DNA of 5,381 bases, from IMG/VR virus record IMGVR_UViG_2660238346_000018; one strand, written 5' to 3'. The notes below the pieces were generated by a model. It made no database searches and was not told where the DNA came from. It was given only the letters and a program-made list of their open reading frames with translations. Of the stretch, positions 1-5,381 are shown piece by piece. The stretch's first letter is position 1. Each line of letters begins with the position of its first letter. This DNA is from a virus (lineage: Duplodnaviria > Heunggongvirae > Uroviricota > Caudoviricetes). Made by a program: the position numbers and the translations under genes.

Positions 1-40
1 ATTGGCGTTGAACTGGAGACCGGACGTTTTGAGCAGACAG

Positions 41-262
41 TCAGGGAAGTTCAGGATTTAATCGTTTGAAAAGGAAAGTACCATCAGCACCAATATCAAA
101 CTTCACATCAACCCGTCCCTTTATATAATTTGCCGCTGCATAGGCCGGATATTGTGGTAATGCCTTAACCAACTGTCGGGGCATATCTGTTTTATGTTGC
201 GTACAGCCCATAACCAGAGAAGACAACAAAATAATTAACGGAAGATTTCTTTTCATTTTCAT
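41..262 (-). CDS. Short lipoprotein with a TonB C-terminal-like motif, possibly truncated
   Basis: N-terminus MKMKRNLPLIILLSSLVMGC looks like a lipoprotein signal peptide with a VMGC lipobox. The motif QYPAYAAANYIKGRVDVKFDIGADG resembles the start of the TonB C-terminal domain (E. coli TonB QYPARAQALRIEGQVKVKFDV..DG), but the ORF stops about 15 residues later, well short of a full domain. Start could be ATG at 262 or 256; the ORF track used GTG at 271. GGGA lies just upstream. Confidence 0.45.
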   Translation of the reverse strand: MKMKRNLPLIILLSSLVMGCTQHKTDMPRQLVKALPQYPAYAAANYIKGRVDVKFDIGADGTFLFKRLNPELP

Positions 263-276
263 TCCCGGCACAGATA

Positions 277-293
277 AGAATAAGTCTTATTCT
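277..293. repeat. Perfect 17-bp palindrome AGAATAAG-T-CTTATTCT just upstream of the lipoprotein start
   Basis: Read directly from the sequence: 8-bp arms with a 1-nt centre, 15-30 nt upstream of the minus-strand start at 262. The minus-strand reading contains TAGAAT, a -10-like hexamer. A 1-nt loop cannot form an RNA hairpin, so a dimeric protein-binding site is the more likely reading. Confidence 0.3.
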
Positions 294-600
294 AACAATG
301 CCACCCTGTCGGTCATCAATCCTCTGTTTAATGGCAACGACAATTATCCGACTTAAATCACAAATCAGACACATGACATAACAGAGCTTGCGAGGTAACA
401 CATCGTCCGGTTTCTTCCACCATCGCACCGGACCAGCGACCATGAGGGGACAACGCCGCGCTCCGTTAACGCGGTAAACCCCGGTGTGTATCGTTTTTGA
501 TTATCCCCGCACACTCGCGCAGAGGAGTCTCCCGGTCGGGCTGCGGTCTCTGTTAATGCAGGAATACGGCGACAATACCGCGCATGGATAATAAGGTCGC

Positions 601-825
601 TCAACACACTGGCTGTAATGCAGCGGATACCATGTGGCATTTAGCGGCATTCATCGTACACTCCACGGTTAGCTCTTCATTCGTGGCATTCACCTGAAAG
701 GTCCGGGAGTGTAATTGCGTACATTTACCACTGAACGAACCTTCAACAAGAACACGACCACGCTGCAAAATACGGAACGGAATTGTTCCCTGAAAAGGCT
801 TTACGGTTACCAGTAATTTCTTCAT
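601..825 (-). CDS. Hypothetical 74-aa protein downstream of Rz
   Basis: ATG at 825-823 is preceded by GGAGG with 4-nt spacing (minus-strand CCGGAGGATGTATG), 24 nt after the Rz stop. Product MKKLLVTVKPFQG... has no signal peptide or TM segment. No family recognised. Confidence 0.5.
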   Translation of the reverse strand: MKKLLVTVKPFQGTIPFRILQRGRVLVEGSFSGKCTQLHSRTFQVNATNEELTVECTMNAAKCHMVSAALQPVC

Positions 826-848
826 ACATCCTCCGGATAATAAAAAGA

Positions 849-1307
849 CTACTTAATGCACTGAGTACGGATATATTCCTGCGCCCCTTCCAGTTGCTTC
901 TGCATCGTCATCAGCCGCTCTCTGAGGGTGAAATAATCCCGTGTAACGGTGTCTGCCAGTCGGGGGCCGGTTGCATTATCCACGCGGGCGGTGCCGGTGG
1001 CTTCACGCACGGGACCTGGACAGGTGGCGTTGATACGCAGGCGCTTACGACCAGCGGCAACGTCAGCGCGAAAAGTTTCATTTTCAGCTCTCGCATCAGC
1101 TAATTCCCTCGAGTATTTTGCATCGAGCGCAGCAACATCGCGCTGGCGCACCTGCATATCAGTAATGGTTGCGTTCGCCAGCTTCAGTTCACTGGCTTTG
1201 TTATCGCGCTGCGCTTTGTAGGTAATCGCGTTATCACGGTAATGGTCTGTTGCCATCCACAGCGCTCCACAGGCCACCAGCAGAATAACGATAAACGCGG
1301 AAAGCAT
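849..1307 (-). CDS. Rz: Rz i-spanin (inner-membrane spanin subunit)
   Basis: Translation closely matches lambda Rz as remembered: [50 protein letters not shown], with an N-terminal TM segment. Start taken as ATG at 1307; the ORF track extends to an in-frame GTG at 1322. Confidence 0.85.
911..1096 (-). CDS. Rz1: Rz1 o-spanin (outer-membrane lipoprotein) nested in the +1 frame of Rz
   Basis: [20 protein letters not shown]...[32 protein letters not shown] is near-collinear with lambda Rz1 (lipobox, proline-rich segment, [26 protein letters not shown]). It lies wholly inside Rz. GAGGGA sits about 8 nt upstream of the ATG. Confidence 0.8.
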
Positions 1308-1318
1308 TCGGTTTATGT

Positions 1319-1450
1319 TCACCCCAGCAGCCCCGACGAAGACAACATCATCCAGGCCATGGAAAGAAAAAGAGCAACCAGCATTAGTGAAAATGAAATG
1401 CCGACAATTACACAGAGGATCTTCGCCAGCGTTATGAGTTTGTCTGACAT
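1319..1450 (-). CDS. Small hydrophobic ORF (43 aa, predicted single TM) immediately upstream of Rz
   Basis: ATG at 1450 is preceded by a strong SD AGGGAGGA with 7-nt spacing. Product [43 protein letters not shown] is almost entirely hydrophobic. Its TGA stop (1321-1319) overlaps the alternative GTG start of Rz. No homolog recognised. Confidence 0.4.
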
Positions 1451-1464
1451 GCTTAATCCTCCCT

Positions 1465-1647
1465 TCACGATTTCAACGCAATGACCAGTTTTGCCAGCCC
1501 ATACAGCATCGGGGACACAGCAACACCGACCGCCACCCACTTAATGGCAAAAGCCAGTGCTCTGCTGATGTCATCAGTTACAGGCGCTTTCAGTTCAAGG
1601 CCGTTTTTCATAGTCAACCTCAACAGAATTCGTTTATACTTTTCCAT
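1465..1647 (-). CDS. Small ORF (60 aa) with a C-terminal hydrophobic segment
   Basis: ATG at 1647 with AGGGAG close upstream (spacing short, about 3 nt). Product [60 protein letters not shown]. It ends 14 nt before the RBS of the 43-aa ORF. No homolog recognised; could be a non-coding leader. Confidence 0.3.
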
Positions 1648-1680
1648 GTTCTCCCTTGCCTTATCCAAGGTCAGAAACAC

Positions 1681-1720
1681 AAAACCCCGCTTGCAGCCAA
1701 CAAACGGGGTTTTTACTTTT
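1681..1720. terminator. Intrinsic-terminator-like hairpin, usable on both strands
   Basis: AAAACCCCG (1681-1689) pairs with CGGGGTTTT (1705-1713) around a 15-nt loop, followed by TTTTTACTTTT on the plus strand. On the minus strand the same stem is followed by TTTTGTGTTT. Lies 84 nt downstream of the endolysin stop. Confidence 0.5.
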
Positions 1721-1803
1721 ATTCACTTAGTTTTTGTCAGTTCGCAGGATTTCGTGTTATCCGCCCGTGTGAGCAAACCGCATTTTTCAGCAAAATATTC
1801 TGC

Positions 1804-2337
1804 TTATCTGTCAATTCCCCAGCACGCCAGCGCACTCTCCTGGTCACGACGGGATACCTGACCGTAACAGTTATTTGAGCGAATACGGCAGTCTCTGCCA
1901 CCGTCCTTAATCCACCAGCGAATCGCCTCGCATGCTCCCCTGCGATCACCAGCATTAATTCGTCTGTAAAACGTCGACGGGAAACACTTACCGGGACCAA
2001 TGTTGTACGGACAGAATGACGCGATCCCCGCTTTCTGGGGTTCGGTCAGCGGCACTCTGATGTTTTTCTCCACCCACGCCAGCGCTTTATCACGCTCAAT
2101 GGCGTTAACCTGGTCGCATTTTTCCTTCGACAACTTCATGCCCGGAACGACAGGTTTGCCATCCACCATGATGGCACCACGGCAGATGGTCCAGATACCT
2201 GCACCATCACGGTATGCCGTTGTGTGGTTACCCTCTTTTTCGTCCAGAAACTGGTCAAGTATCTGAGGAGCAGACGCGCCTGCAGCAATCAGCGCCAGAA
2301 CAGCAGCTGACAGGCCGTATTTGATTTTTGCGTTCAT
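1804..2337 (-). CDS. R: SAR endolysin (T4-lysozyme-like muramidase, glycoside hydrolase family 24)
   Basis: 177 aa. N-terminal Gly/Ala-rich weakly hydrophobic segment YGLSAAVLALIAAGASAPQIL is typical of a signal-anchor-release domain. E..D..T catalytic-triad spacing (EKEGNHTTAYRDGAGIWT) and overall layout resemble phage 21 R. No canonical SD upstream of the ATG (AT-rich ATAAATATCC). Confidence 0.88.
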   Translation of the reverse strand: MNAKIKYGLSAAVLALIAAGASAPQILDQFLDEKEGNHTTAYRDGAGIWTICRGAIMVDGKPVVPGMKLSKEKCDQVNAIERDKALAWVEKNIRVPLTEPQKAGIASFCPYNIGPGKCFPSTFYRRINAGDRRGACEAIRWWIKDGGRDCRIRSNNCYGQVSRRDQESALACWGIDR

Positions 2338-2394
2338 GGATATTTATCAGGATTTATCGGTTCCGAATCCCTGGATATGTTAAGCCTTCACCCC

Positions 2395-2413
2395 GCCAGT
2401 GGTGGGCACTGGC
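2395..2413. repeat. Inverted repeat GCCAGTG-N5-CACTGGC in the divergent intergenic region
   Basis: Read directly: 7-bp arms at 2395-2401 and 2407-2413, located 36-54 nt upstream of the plus-strand 86-aa gene and about 60 nt upstream of the endolysin start on the other strand. Candidate operator or RNA stem. Confidence 0.3.
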
Positions 2414-2448
2414 CAGGGTATGTCAATCTGATAAACACAGAGGTGACT

Positions 2449-2709
2449 ATGGATTATCCAAATCTACCAAAACAAACTTTTGCTGATTTAATCGCACTCA
2501 GGCAAGCAGTCGTAGCTCTAATCAACGTGTTGCCGGATGAGGAAAAGGAATTAGTTAAAGCAATTCTTAACAGAACTGCCGCCGATTTTTCATCATTCCC
2601 ACTGACAGATGACCTTGCGGACCTTCCTGAATTAATTGCAGCGTCCGCCATTAAGCTTACTGAAGAGATTTACTCTCCTCAAAAGCCTTCACAAAATTCC
2701 TGCGAGTAA
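2449..2709 (+). CDS. Hypothetical 86-aa acidic protein, the only plus-strand gene supported in the window
   Basis: ATG at 2449 preceded by GAGGTGA with about 5-nt spacing; TAA stop at 2707-2709 followed 19 nt later by a strong intrinsic terminator. Product MDYPNLPKQTFADLIALRQAVVALINVLPDEEKELVKAILNRTAADFSSFPLTDDLADLPELIAASAIKLTEEIYSPQKPSQNSCE. AT-rich (about 40% GC) relative to flanking lysis genes. No family recognised. Confidence 0.5.
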   Translation: MDYPNLPKQTFADLIALRQAVVALINVLPDEEKELVKAILNRTAADFSSFPLTDDLADLPELIAASAIKLTEEIYSPQKPSQNSCE

Positions 2710-3166
2710 CTTCAATGCAATAATCGTAAAACGCCGCGAACTGCTCATCGCGGCGTTTTTTTGCATCTTCAGAAGGCATCAGCGTCGACAGTTTTTTATT
2801 CAGTTCAACGACGCAATTCTCCAGTTTTTCAATGCGTGATTCGATATCATCTTTTTCTGACAGTATCGTGTTATATGCATTGTTAATTTGTATGGTATAC
2901 CGATCTTCGGAACAAAGGCACTTTTCCTGTGACTGTTCATCCCCTTCACATAACCCGGCAGCAATATCCATGAAAAACTGCTTCGCCTTCTTTTTCGCCT
3001 CAGCTTCGTAAAATTCCAGCGTGGCACCTTCAACACGATCAAGATCAATCACCACATTTGGCAACAACAGTGACGTATACCCACCCGTTTCCAGCGCTAC
3101 AGTAACAGTAATCTTATCCGGGTAATTATTTATCCCTTTAACAACCAGTTCGTATTGTTTATTCAT
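2657..3166 (-). CDS. Hypothetical 169-aa protein inserted between pinholin and endolysin
   Basis: ATG at 3166 lies 4 nt after the pinholin stop, with GGAG about 9 nt upstream. Product MNKQYELVVKGINNYPDKITVTVALETGGYTSLLLPNVVIDLDRVEG... has no signal peptide or TM; the C-terminal half is charged with a coiled-coil-like segment (DDIESRIEKLENCVVELNKKL) and a cysteine cluster CEGDEQSQEKCLC. AT-rich. The CDS reads through the 2728-2762 hairpin (encoding KKRRDEQFAAF) and overlaps the 3' end of the plus-strand gene by 53 nt. Confidence 0.6.
   Translation of the reverse strand: MNKQYELVVKGINNYPDKITVTVALETGGYTSLLLPNVVIDLDRVEGATLEFYEAEAKKKAKQFFMDIAAGLCEGDEQSQEKCLCSEDRYTIQINNAYNTILSEKDDIESRIEKLENCVVELNKKLSTLMPSEDAKKRRDEQFAAFYDYCIEVTRRNFVKAFEESKSLQ
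2728..2762 (+). terminator. Rho-independent terminator for the 86-aa gene, embedded in the convergent 169-aa CDS
   Basis: 9-bp GC-rich stem ACGCCGCGA (2731-2739) / TCGCGGCGT (2748-2756), 8-nt loop, extendable by three A-T pairs, followed by a run of seven T. On the minus strand the same hairpin is followed by TTTTACGATTATT. Confidence 0.7.
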
Positions 3167-3170
3167 CGCC

Positions 3171-3386
3171 TTACTCTCCCCGCGCTGCCTTACGACGGTC
3201 CTCTCTGATTTTGAAATACAGGTTAGTCAGATATGTCAGCAGCCCAAACAGCAGACTCCCCAGCACGCCTATTGCCGCCCACTGAGACGGGGAAACCCTG
3301 TCCAGCAACTGCAGGAACCAGTAGCCCGTTCCCACCGCTGACGTGGTGTATGACACACCTGTTGTGATTTTTTCCATCTGGTACAT
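3171..3386 (-). CDS. S: Class II pinholin (phage 21 S-type) with dual start motif
   Basis: 71 aa [71 protein letters not shown], near-identical in layout to phage 21 S as remembered. Two TM domains, the first Gly/Ala-rich. Met1 and Met4 give the antiholin/holin dual start. GGGAGA SD upstream. Confidence 0.9.
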
Positions 3387-3461
3387 ACCCCGTCTCCCGT
3401 ACTCGGAAGCTCACAACAACAAAAGGGCCACCAGCTCTTTACTGATGACCCTGACTCACCG

Positions 3462-3752
3462 TTACAGCATTGTGCCCGATTCTGGCTGTGTGTCTGTCAT
3501 ATCCGTCACCGGTGGCTCCGGCTGAATATCACCATTTTCCGTGGTGACATCTTCCGCCTGTGGTTCCGGAAGCAGTTCCGGGGATGGTTCCGGCTGTGCA
3601 CCAAGCAATTCATCCAGAATTGAATCCACTTCTGCATCAAGACGCGCCTCAAGGTTCTGCCGAAGTTGCTGTTTCAGTGCGCTCCGGACTTCTTCAGAGC
3701 GCAGGACTTCCTTCACTGCCTCAGCAGTGACCAGCGATTTTATTTCTGACAT
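3462..3752 (-). CDS. Hypothetical acidic 96-aa protein upstream of the holin
   Basis: ATG at 3752 with a weak SD-like GAGAA upstream. Product MSEIKSLVTAEAVKEVLRSEEVRSALKQQLRQNLEARLDAEVDSILDELLG... has a helical N-terminal half and a Pro/Glu-rich low-complexity tail. The ORF track extends it upstream, but that extension (MCCIFFRVGTGQC...) is not protein-like. I faintly recall DUF-type small proteins at this position in Stx-phage annotations but cannot confirm. Confidence 0.5.
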   Translation of the reverse strand: MSEIKSLVTAEAVKEVLRSEEVRSALKQQLRQNLEARLDAEVDSILDELLGAQPEPSPELLPEPQAEDVTTENGDIQPEPPVTDMTDTQPESGTML

Positions 3753-3777
3753 AGGATTTTCTCGTTGAAAGGGGTTA

Positions 3778-3972
3778 TTAAGAAGGTTGTTCCGGAATGA
3801 GTGGGGCTTCTGTTTTTGCTCCGGCTGACTGACTGGCGCTGATTTTCTCTGCGGCCCTTTTATCAATCTGCCTGCGCCAGAAATCGCGCACTGCCCTGTA
3901 CCCACCCGAAAGAAGATACAGCACACAGACCGCCGTACAGAAGTACAGCATCACCTGATGAATAAATGTCAT
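3778..3972 (-). CDS. Hypothetical 64-aa protein with an N-terminal TM helix
   Basis: ATG at 3972. Product MTFIHQVMLYFCTAVCVLYLLSGGYRAVRDFWRRQIDKRAAEKISASQSAGAKTEAPLIPEQPS: one hydrophobic helix then a basic, charged tail. Stops 25 nt before the acidic-protein start. RBS weak (AAGAAA). Confidence 0.4.
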   Translation of the reverse strand: MTFIHQVMLYFCTAVCVLYLLSGGYRAVRDFWRRQIDKRAAEKISASQSAGAKTEAPLIPEQPS

Positions 3973-4069
3973 AGTTTCTTACCGTTATGGTTGACAATGA
4001 GAACTGTTTTCATTTAAAAAACCGATATACGAAAGCATCTTTTCTTTACATTCTCCATTGGGATTACCT

Positions 4070-4106
4070 CCGCCAGCTTCCGTTCCTGCCGCTGGCGGCT
4101 TTTTTT
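4070..4106 (+). terminator. Plus-strand-oriented intrinsic terminator between the esterase gene and the small genes
   Basis: Stem CCGCCAGC (4070-4077) / GCTGGCGG (4091-4098), 13-nt loop, then C plus seven T (4100-4106). On the minus strand the stem is preceded by seven A and not followed by a U-tract, so it would terminate plus-strand (antisense) transcription only. Confidence 0.5.
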
Positions 4107-4111
4107 GCCGG

Positions 4112-5381
4112 TTATGATGATGCCCGGCTTTCGTTAACTTTGACTGTGACCGTATCAAGCAGTACAGGATACGTCGCTTTTGCCCCCGTGATATCTGTCA
4201 GCGTCAGCGTATCTGCTGTAAAGCCATCATTTGTCCACATCACAAGGTCAAACGCCGTCTGCTCTGTACCATCAATCACCGGAACGACTCTTTCGCTGTT
4301 ATTTCCCGCAAAGCGGAAAACAACCGTATGCCAGTTATGGTCAAACGCACCAAATGTACCAAGTTGTGCATTCGACGTGCCCTTGTGGTGCATAAGATTC
4401 AGATTTGATGCATCCGTCTGAAGGAAGAATGATGCCAGCATACTGTTTGCTGCCGCGCCTGACGCCCACTGCGACACCGGCCAGTAGAGACCAAAGACAA
4501 ACTGTCCGTTCACCAGTTCGCTTCCATCCGGAATTTTGAACCGTACGGCAATTTCACCCCCCTTGCTGAGAAGATTTTTTGCCTCCTCCACTGCAACAGT
4601 ACGGAACATTTTCCAGGACGTCAGTTTACCGGGCTGTTTTTCCAGTCGCAGCGCTTTCCGTCCACCGTCATCAGTCACAGTGCCTTTGCCACCGGCAGCC
4701 CCCCACTGCTGCTCTGTCCATACACCATTTCCACTGTTCGCATCATATTCAGCCACCGTCCTGGTACTGCTCACGGCCTCATCATGACCAGTACCAGCAA
4801 CACCGCCATCCTGCGGTTTCTCAACACCCGGTACCCCCGGACTGACATCATCACCGGGAGTTGTACCACCCAACTGCGGTGCGCTCTGCCCGGTAAGGAA
4901 CGATAATGTCCGCCCGGCGTACTGCAAAATGGCACCTGCCAGGCGGTCTGAAACAATGCCTCTTCGCGCCCATGAACTGAAGTGCGTTTTACGATCGGCT
5001 GACGTCCAGTTACTGGCAGTGCGTGACGCAGCACCATAGTATCCCGCCGGGATAATGTCCGGATCTTCTGACGGCTCGTTTGTCGGCACATTCACACCAT
5101 GCTCATCCGTCATCAACGGCACAAAGTGAATATTCTGCGCAGCTTTGCCTTTATACCCACCGTAAACCGCCTCATACGGCGCTGCATACCTTTCCTTCCA
5201 GTAGTACGTGGTATCACCGCAAATCCACGGGACGCTGGCCGTTGTCCCGCCAGTACACTGCTCTGCCACATCTGCCAGTTCCGTACGGAACTGATTTACC
5301 ATGGCAAGGAAAAGCGCATTGTGTTCTGCATGTCTCCCCGAACTGACATCTTTTTCTCCCTGCATCCAAATCACTGATAAC
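4112..5381 (-). CDS. nanS-p: NanS-family sialate 9-O-acetylesterase, prophage type, N-terminus beyond the window
   Basis: IWMQGEKD, VPWICGDTTYYWKERY..YEAVYGGY, EPSEDPD, GYYGAASRTASNWTSADRKTHFSSWARRGIVSDRLAGAILQY are collinear with remembered E. coli NanS/YjhS blocks (CWMQGEFD, PWFCGDTTWYWKENF, DEDPD, GYYGSAYRSPENWTTALRSSHFSTAARRGIISDRFVEAILQF). An extra C-terminal domain of about 230 aa follows. The reading frame is open to the window edge; the ORF-track start at 5374 is a GTG artefact. Confidence 0.85.
   Translation of the reverse strand, partial: LSVIWMQGEKDVSSGRHAEHNALFLAMVNQFRTELADVAEQCTGGTTASVPWICGDTTYYWKERYAAPYEAVYGGYKGKAAQNIHFVPLMTDEHGVNVPTNEPSEDPDIIPAGYYGAASRTASNWTSADRKTHFSSWARRGIVSDRLAGAILQYAGRTLSFLTGQSAPQLGGTTPGDDVSPGVPGVEKPQDGGVAGTGHDEAVSSTRTVAEYDANSGNGVWTEQQWGAAGGKGTVTDDGGRKALRLEKQPGKLTSWKMFRTVAVEEAKNLLSKGGEIAVRFKIPDGSELVNGQFVFGLYWPVSQWASGAAANSMLASFFLQTDASNLNLMHHKGTSNAQLGTFGAFDHNWHTVVFRFAGNNSERVVPVIDGTEQTAFDLVMWTNDGFTADTLTLTDITGAKATYPVLLDTVTVKVNESRASS

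Follow-up and report, generated by a model that had tools for sequence, protein, structure and literature searches.

Introduction

Phages carry several small lipoproteins that come close to the subject of this study. Cor of phages phi80, N15 and HK022 is a lipoprotein acting on FhuA, and lambda has a small lipoprotein gene, bor, directly downstream of Rz/Rz1, where it is transcribed opposite to the lysis genes. With regard to TonB itself, Howard and co-workers are said to have reported in J Bacteriol in 2001 that periplasmic TonB fragments inhibited FhuA- and FecA-dependent functions. Binding of the Ton box consists in a strand being added to the beta-sheet of the TonB C-terminal domain (PMC5413942). 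Moreover, T5 Llp is presented in a recent preprint as a phage outer-membrane lipoprotein that blocks the TonB-dependent receptor FhuA (bioRxiv 10.64898/2026.03.26.714494). The closest described relative of the locus treated here is an annotated prophage gene for a 'TonB family protein', and examples of its intact form are gp70 of phage JLK-2012 (YP_009909161.1), gene 66 of Lys8385Vzw (QIW91738.1, named 'protein TonB') and WP_000828068.1 of E. coli. The intact product has 108 residues (MKRNLPLIILLSSLVMGCTQHKTDMPRQLVKALPQYPAYAAANYIKGRVDVKFDIGADGT followed by VTRIEFIRSEPHHLFDEQVVKAMAKWRFEKDRPCKGVKKTFIFSPSAP). A literature search for a characterised phage TonB-like lipoprotein or its function found no relevant publication.

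Here we analysed a stretch of 5,381 nucleotides, called the window below, from the Caudoviricetes record IMGVR_UViG_2660238346_000018. Near its left end lies a short ORF in which a sequence-only reading had seen a lipoprotein with the beginning of a TonB C-terminal domain. This ORF is the 5' remnant or an assembly artefact of the annotated prophage gene. We are nearly certain that it belongs to this known and already annotated family and does not represent a gene type of its own.

Results

Gene content of the window

The window corresponds to a whole contig, CCCD01002324.1 (5381 bp), of GCA_000939215.1, a very fragmented draft assembly in which the contig numbers exceed 2300. Apart from the short ORF and the DNA next to it, the window holds the late region of a lambdoid prophage on the minus strand. 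The features are as follows.

1..68, plus strand: 3' end of a prophage DNA methyltransferase gene, comprising the last 22 codons and the TGA stop (66-68); it runs towards the short ORF and lies at the contig end
41-271, minus strand: the short ORF, with its stop at 41-43 and candidate starts GTG 271, ATG 262 and ATG 256
41..76, minus strand: 11 codons from outside the family and the stop 41-43, antisense to the methyltransferase gene end
72..76, no strand: join between methyltransferase-derived and TonB-like-derived DNA, from a base-by-base table, with N at 72 and 76 in the public contig
77..256, minus strand: codons 1-60 of a prophage 'TonB family protein' lipoprotein gene, which has 108 codons when intact (tblastn, 100% identity)
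77..157, minus strand: match to the start of TonB_C, residues 34-60, with the YP motif, helix 1, strand 1 and the next turn (Pfam profile, alignment with TonB structures, model of the intact protein)
203..256, minus strand: signal peptide MKRNLPLIILLSSLVMG and lipidated Cys18 (codon 205..203), from inspection of the translation
289..316, minus strand: weak promoter-like site ATGACC-16-TAGAAT with TG, directly upstream of the short ORF
601-825, minus strand: 74-aa ORF (ORF call)
849-1322, minus strand: Rz (Pfam Phage_lysis, E 1.8e-49)
911-1096, minus strand: Rz1, embedded in Rz (Pfam Rz1)
1804-2337, minus strand: lysozyme (family match)
2377-2709, plus strand: 110-aa ORF flanked by the lysozyme gene and the DUF1327 gene, whose 3' end it overlaps
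2657-3166, minus strand: DUF1327/YdfR-family protein (family match)
3171-3386, minus strand: P21-type holin (family match)
3462-3926, minus strand: DUF826 (family match)
3778-3972, minus strand: DUF1378 (family match)
4112-5381, minus strand: SASA-family (NanS-p-like) esterase with DUF6645, C-terminal 420 residues, cut by the contig end

Some of these genes deserve a remark of their own. The DUF1327/YdfR protein has 169 residues, with the Pfam domain in residues 1-80 only and a long extra C-terminal half giving weak coiled-coil-type matches, and exactly this 169-aa protein was found on nine short draft contigs only. The 110-aa ORF at 2377-2709 has no family match, and an 86-aa version of it is called by gene callers in all related contigs. 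The 74-aa ORF at 601-825, annotated as hypothetical protein WP_000735655.1 in complete genomes, lies between Rz and the TonB-like gene, where related phages have a Rha-family regulator or KilA-N gene. It matches only positions 100-172 of the 291-position phrog_2571 and looks like a conserved remnant. The esterase end at 4112-5381 is a multi-copy prophage repeat, as is the methyltransferase end at the opposite side of the contig.

Comparison of the window with the deposited contig gave three differences, at positions 72, 76 and 803, where the record has N throughout and the window has A. The N-to-A change at 803 leaves one codon of the 74-aa ORF unreliable as well. Moreover, another contig of the same assembly (CCCD01002307.1, 853 bp) is 100% identical to window 2514-3366, and this duplication points to redundancy or mixing in the assembly.

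Start and lipoprotein signal of the short ORF

ATG 256 is the likeliest start of the short ORF, because it is the start used by RefSeq for the intact orthologues and a Shine-Dalgarno-like GGGA at 263-266 sits 6 nt before it. The product is therefore numbered from MKRNLPL and has 71 residues in the window. By inspection, the N-terminus (MKRNLPLIILLSSLVMG followed by Cys) has K/R in its n-region, a hydrophobic core and the lipobox L-V-M-G-C; thus a charged n-region, a hydrophobic core, a lipobox of the form [LVI][ASTVIM][GAS]C and a Cys within the first 35 residues were all found. In lipoprotein sorting the residue after the Cys, Asp or another one, sets the outer-membrane destination. Here it is Thr rather than Asp, so that sorting to the outer membrane is predicted. 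The promoter-like site upstream of the ORF was also found 5' of the intact gene, although a promoter scan gave site counts near the gene that were not above the shuffled expectation. A terminator scan found none 3' of the intact gene.

The intact 108-codon parent gene

Residues 1-60 of the short ORF were 100% identical to the 108-aa 'TonB family protein' WP_000828068.1 (tblastn, window 256..77), and window 77..256 is the sole part of the ORF that derives from this family. In its identity and in its position after Rz/Rz1 the window copy agrees with the WP_000828068.1 group, and its upstream neighbours match too, but it does not run to the full 108 codons: beyond codon 60 its frame consists of 11 foreign codons and a stop. 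At the nucleotide level, 524 of 525 bases matched between window 76-600 and a locus with the intact gene (L004, gene at L004:2857-3183). The megablast matches in phage records and complete E. coli genomes were near-identical, all began at window 74-77 and extended rightwards, and none of them spans window 1-73 at the matching place. The missing 3' part of the gene (146 nt, codons 61-108) was sought throughout the window, also as the partner of a local inversion, and was absent.

The intact gene was found in 414 of 5426 complete E. coli genomes, at 482 places and mostly with at least 99% identity. This gene of lambdoid and Stx prophages lies on the late-operon strand, always between Rz on the upstream side and the YlcI/YnfO, HNH endonuclease and terminase genes on the downstream side. 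In a sister contig from a different draft assembly (L006), which agrees with window 77-5206 at 99.8% identity, the gene is intact with its 108 codons.

These results bear on the sequence-only reading, which had considered a pseudogene fragment with a premature stop. The fragment is confirmed, since the ORF holds codons 1-60 of a gene whose intact orthologues are common, but there is no premature stop; the gene breaks off where it is joined, without homology, to the methyltransferase gene end. The same reading had named intact orthologues as the sign by which this copy would be known as a decayed fragment, and the common 108-aa orthologues give that sign. It had also noted that the frame continues with LSAQNV after the stop. 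The letters do read so, but they are antisense methyltransferase sequence and not a continuation of TonB.

The join to the methyltransferase gene

Window 1-75 matches the 3' ends of methyltransferase genes at 74 of 75 bases (98.7%) in 1876 E. coli genomes, and this 3' end is a repeat of up to 7 copies per genome. The last 22 methyltransferase codons read IGVELETGRFEQTVREVQDLIV followed by the stop, the reference gene being the CDS 3020-4069 of L003. An IS end or another mobile-element terminus at window 1-76 was also considered and was excluded, as the stretch is the methyltransferase gene end.

In the base-by-base table the window follows the methyltransferase gene up to 75 and the TonB-like gene from 77; GA at 74-75 is common to both parents, and position 76 fits neither. 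The tail of 11 codons reads XXFKRLNPELP in the record and FLFKRLNPELP in the window. Because the N at 72 and 76 were written as A, codons 61-62 ('FL') are products of filling. For two of three N in a contig of 5381 nt to lie no more than 11 nt from a chosen point, we estimate a chance of ~1e-5. The join is located 76 nt from the contig end.

The usual prophage order, on one strand, is methyltransferase, tRNAs, esterase, holin, lysozyme, Rz and TonB-like gene. In the window the methyltransferase end is on the strand opposite to the lysis genes and the TonB-like gene, so that these are inverted with respect to it; judged from gene order and orientation, the join has the geometry of an inversion or of two joined, oppositely oriented prophages. 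The join was absent from 5426 complete E. coli genomes and 50,697 phage records, and pattern searches, both exact and allowing for N, gave 0 matches in IMG/VR, GTDB representative genomes and JGI metagenomes. Among the homologues in a set of 5.8 billion protein clusters, no other cluster has the same protein tail. Exact look-ups of the 73-aa and 71-aa products returned no record, because the deposited product contains X.

Artefact or rearrangement

In the contig, codon 60 is linked to the 3' end of the convergent methyltransferase gene by a non-homologous join with 2 nt shared, the last 48 codons are gone, and the frame runs for 11 meaningless codons into antisense DNA before stopping. On balance we lean slightly towards a join that does not reproduce the genome faithfully. 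On this account the contig end, in a prophage repeat of several copies, would be chimeric or unresolved, and the 'short lipoprotein' would be an artefact of assembly and of filling N with A. Consistent with this account, two N flank the join and the join lies so near to the contig end inside a multi-copy repeat; the draft assembly is of low quality and redundant, and the join is unique to one contig. Moreover, the relative with 99.8% identity (L006) has the intact gene, and artefactual truncations of the same gene, with Nextera-adapter tails, exist in public data. On the other hand, a de Bruijn-type assembler would rarely pass through a chimeric link when it also had the true continuation, and a contig that ends ~75 nt into a multi-copy repeat looks like a real unique junction beside a repeat. 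The N may also come from reads of other copies of the two parent loci that were mapped onto a real junction, and genuine decay of the gene does occur elsewhere (P0006).

That the join is real is our second choice and a serious possibility. In that case illegitimate recombination in a decaying prophage would have fused the methyltransferase end to the middle of the TonB-like gene and left a functionless 5' remnant, a pseudogene that may be expressed or silent. The route may have been an inversion from downstream of the methyltransferase gene to codon 60, or an exchange between oppositely oriented prophages. A single inversion with breakpoints after the methyltransferase stop and at codon 60 gives exactly the observed order, each contig end falls within a multi-copy prophage repeat, which fits a real unique segment, other copies of the gene were broken independently, and the adjacent 74-aa ORF is also remnant-like. 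A real join is, however, harder to reconcile with one draft contig being its sole occurrence across the collections searched, with the two N at the join and its distance of 76 nt from the contig end, and with the intact gene in the 99.8% identical relative.

With regard to other broken copies in public data, two homologues (P0021 and P0028) end in ...VSYTHLTLPTTRRV and ...CLLYTSGKPLRSY, which is the translated Nextera adapter CTGTCTCTTATACACATCT. They are adapter-contaminated contig ends, not real truncations. P0006 is a frameshifted copy of the gene in a complete chromosome with several split neighbours, and represents genuine decay.

The remnant of the TonB domain

Whether the join is an assembly artefact, as we prefer, or a rearrangement, the coding content of the fragment is the same. 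The sequence-only reading had described a lipoprotein signal followed by only the start of a TonB C-terminal domain, and this description is accurate: the signal was recognised by inspection, and the short ORF matched Pfam PF03544 with E 6.7e-5 and 23.7 bits over profile positions 3-29 of 79. By the curated cut-offs (24.6 bits for PF03544 and 27.1 bits for TIGR01352) the ORF stays outside TonB_C, with 23.7 and 18.1 bits, respectively. NCBIfam models of enterobacterial TonB match its residues 34-60 with E down to 2.8e-7. The YP motif, which is invariant across the family alignment, is kept as PQYPAYAAA against PQYPARAQA of E. coli TonB.

The complete alpha1-beta1-beta2-alpha2-beta3 domain is absent from the window ORF, which ends as a TonB-like sequence at residue 60. 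The fragment keeps helix 1, strand 1 and a turn, the equivalent of TonB residues ~153-187 only, whereas the intact protein aligns from ~153 up to the final strand. The fragment has no strand 2, helix 2 or strand 3. In the complexes 2GSK and 2GRX the strand that pairs with the Ton box is the last strand of the domain, which is absent in the fragment. Since only helix 1 and strand 1 are left, no beta-sheet that binds a Ton box would be possible, and the copy would do nothing, be it artefact or real. A single-sequence AlphaFold model of the 71-aa product had pLDDT 54.8 and pTM 0.22 with no confident fold, which is weak evidence either way. Because the structure models are moderate at best (pLDDT 58.7 for the intact protein and 54.8 for the fragment), we relied mainly on sequence alignment to solved TonB structures. 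From these comparisons the fragment is predicted to be incapable of folding and of binding a Ton box.

The sequence-only reading had also proposed a real, minimal lipoprotein with a TonB-box-binding-like motif that could hinder uptake through TonB. We regard this proposal, taken as a selected protein that shows the motif in the periplasm, as very improbable. The signal peptide, lipobox, promoter-like site and GGGA are intact, so that, with a real join, production of a small lipoprotein would be possible, and the region of the YP motif is retained. However, the tail is antisense methyltransferase sequence and includes ambiguous bases close to the contig end (76 nt away), the one-strand fragment has no sheet for the Ton box to extend, and the single-sequence model gave the low pLDDT and pTM cited above. 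The domain is incomplete, and the short form occurred in no other sequence searched, which gives no sign of selection; on these grounds the proposal finds no support. For the truncated copy itself to act as a decoy is likewise improbable in the extreme. The weakest reading, a chance resemblance to TonB_C in a spurious ORF, is hardly credible: the ORF does fall just under the Pfam gathering cut-off (23.7 vs 24.6 bits), but its 60 N-terminal residues are identical, 60/60, to a 108-aa protein scoring 54.9 bits on TonB_C, that protein matches the enterobacterial TonB models with E 1e-20 and the TonB C-terminal domains of known structure with E 4e-16, and hundreds of genomes annotate the gene as 'TonB family protein', so that the resemblance, when tested for chance, proved genuine.

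The intact lipoprotein family

The intact orthologue scored 54.9 bits on PF03544 and 54.6 bits on TIGR01352, above both cut-offs. Against the solved TonB C-terminal domains of E. coli and Salmonella, 79 of its residues aligned with E of about 4e-16 to 3e-15, and its identity to the TonB proteins of these two organisms was about 39-42% by manual count, including the PQYP motif. In the model of the intact protein, made from a shallow alignment and with a moderate pLDDT of 58.7, the secondary structure is H36-43, E47-55, E61-70, H77-91 and E98-103, and the top 13 PDB matches of this model were all TonB C-terminal domains. The protein has neither a membrane helix nor a proline-rich spacer, and ~8 residues separate the lipid anchor from the start of the TonB homology. 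It is not a full-length TonB: on the NCBIfam PRK10819 equivalogs it scored 49-74 bits against cut-offs of 265-448, with matches within model positions ~152-240. Its nearest relatives by profile are the enterobacterial TonB proteins (E 1e-20). Because the best profile relatives are the enterobacterial TonB proteins themselves, the sequence comparison suggests that the intact family is a captured 3' end of host tonB fused to a lipoprotein signal.

Two other identities were considered for this protein. It matches PHROG 1267, labelled 'Rz-like spanin', from end to end. A spanin identity was rejected, as the window has its own Rz/Rz1, the 108-aa protein matches only TonB-type Pfam families, and it ends in a beta-strand and not in a membrane helix. 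The label of PHROG 1267 is probably wrong, because the phages have separate Rz/Rz1 and the protein has a TonB fold, and it may spread into phage annotations. An identity with Bor, Llp or Cor was rejected too, no such family being among the Pfam, PHROG and NCBIfam matches at the thresholds used. A Pfam Bor match was sought at E up to 1 in both the window ORF and the intact protein, and none was found. No relationship to Llp or Cor was found either, the TonB-type families being the only ones given by Pfam and NCBIfam when the intact protein was scanned with Pfam, PHROG and NCBIfam.

Discussion

The window copy itself matters little, being a broken or mis-assembled form of a gene that annotation pipelines have already named. 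It does carry a practical lesson: when a short ORF near the end of a contig encodes half a domain, comparison with the deposited sequence is advisable; in this case N-to-A filling had made two codons. Public protein sets contain several artefactual truncations of the TonB-like gene, including those with adapter tails.

On the other hand, the intact family is the better lead. It brings a lipid-anchored phage TonB C-terminal domain to ~8% of the complete genomes of E. coli, including many from STEC. Its most likely mode, as we infer it, would be that of a non-energised competitor for the Ton box at the periplasmic face of TonB-dependent transporters. A fuller proposal, which we make only tentatively and hold to be rather unlikely as a whole, is that the 108-aa lipoprotein is a captured TonB C-terminal domain that sits on the inner face of the outer membrane and occupies Ton boxes without energy transduction; it might thus exclude TonB-dependent phages or colicins, or protect progeny phage, at the cost of some iron or B12 uptake. 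If the intact family competes with TonB at the transporters, it would represent a new route of phage or colicin exclusion and possibly a modifier of iron uptake in pathogenic E. coli.

In comparison with known systems, the gene resembles lambda bor in its position after Rz/Rz1, but it shares the strand of the lysis genes, whereas bor lies on the opposite one. T5 Llp and Cor are small phage lipoproteins that, like the intact family, are predicted at the inner leaflet of the outer membrane, and a functional analogy with them is plausible, although they lack the TonB fold that the intact family has. The enterobacterial TonB C-terminal domain (PF03544, TIGR01352; PDB 1U07, 2GSK, 2GRX, 8RD6) is the closest in fold, and the intact phage protein is predicted to share its alpha-beta-beta-alpha-beta arrangement. 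In contrast to enterobacterial TonB, the phage protein has a lipoprotein signal peptide in place of the N-terminal membrane helix and the proline-rich spacer, and since it lacks these two parts it would have no link to ExbB/ExbD. Finally, the window copy is like WP_000828068.1, JLK-2012 gp70 and QIW91738.1 in its first 60 residues and in the upstream DNA (window 77-600), and in both cases the gene lies downstream of Rz/Rz1 and the 74-aa ORF. It differs from that family in that codons 61-108 are replaced by the methyltransferase end, which stands where the intact gene is followed by YlcI/YnfO, HNH endonuclease and terminase.
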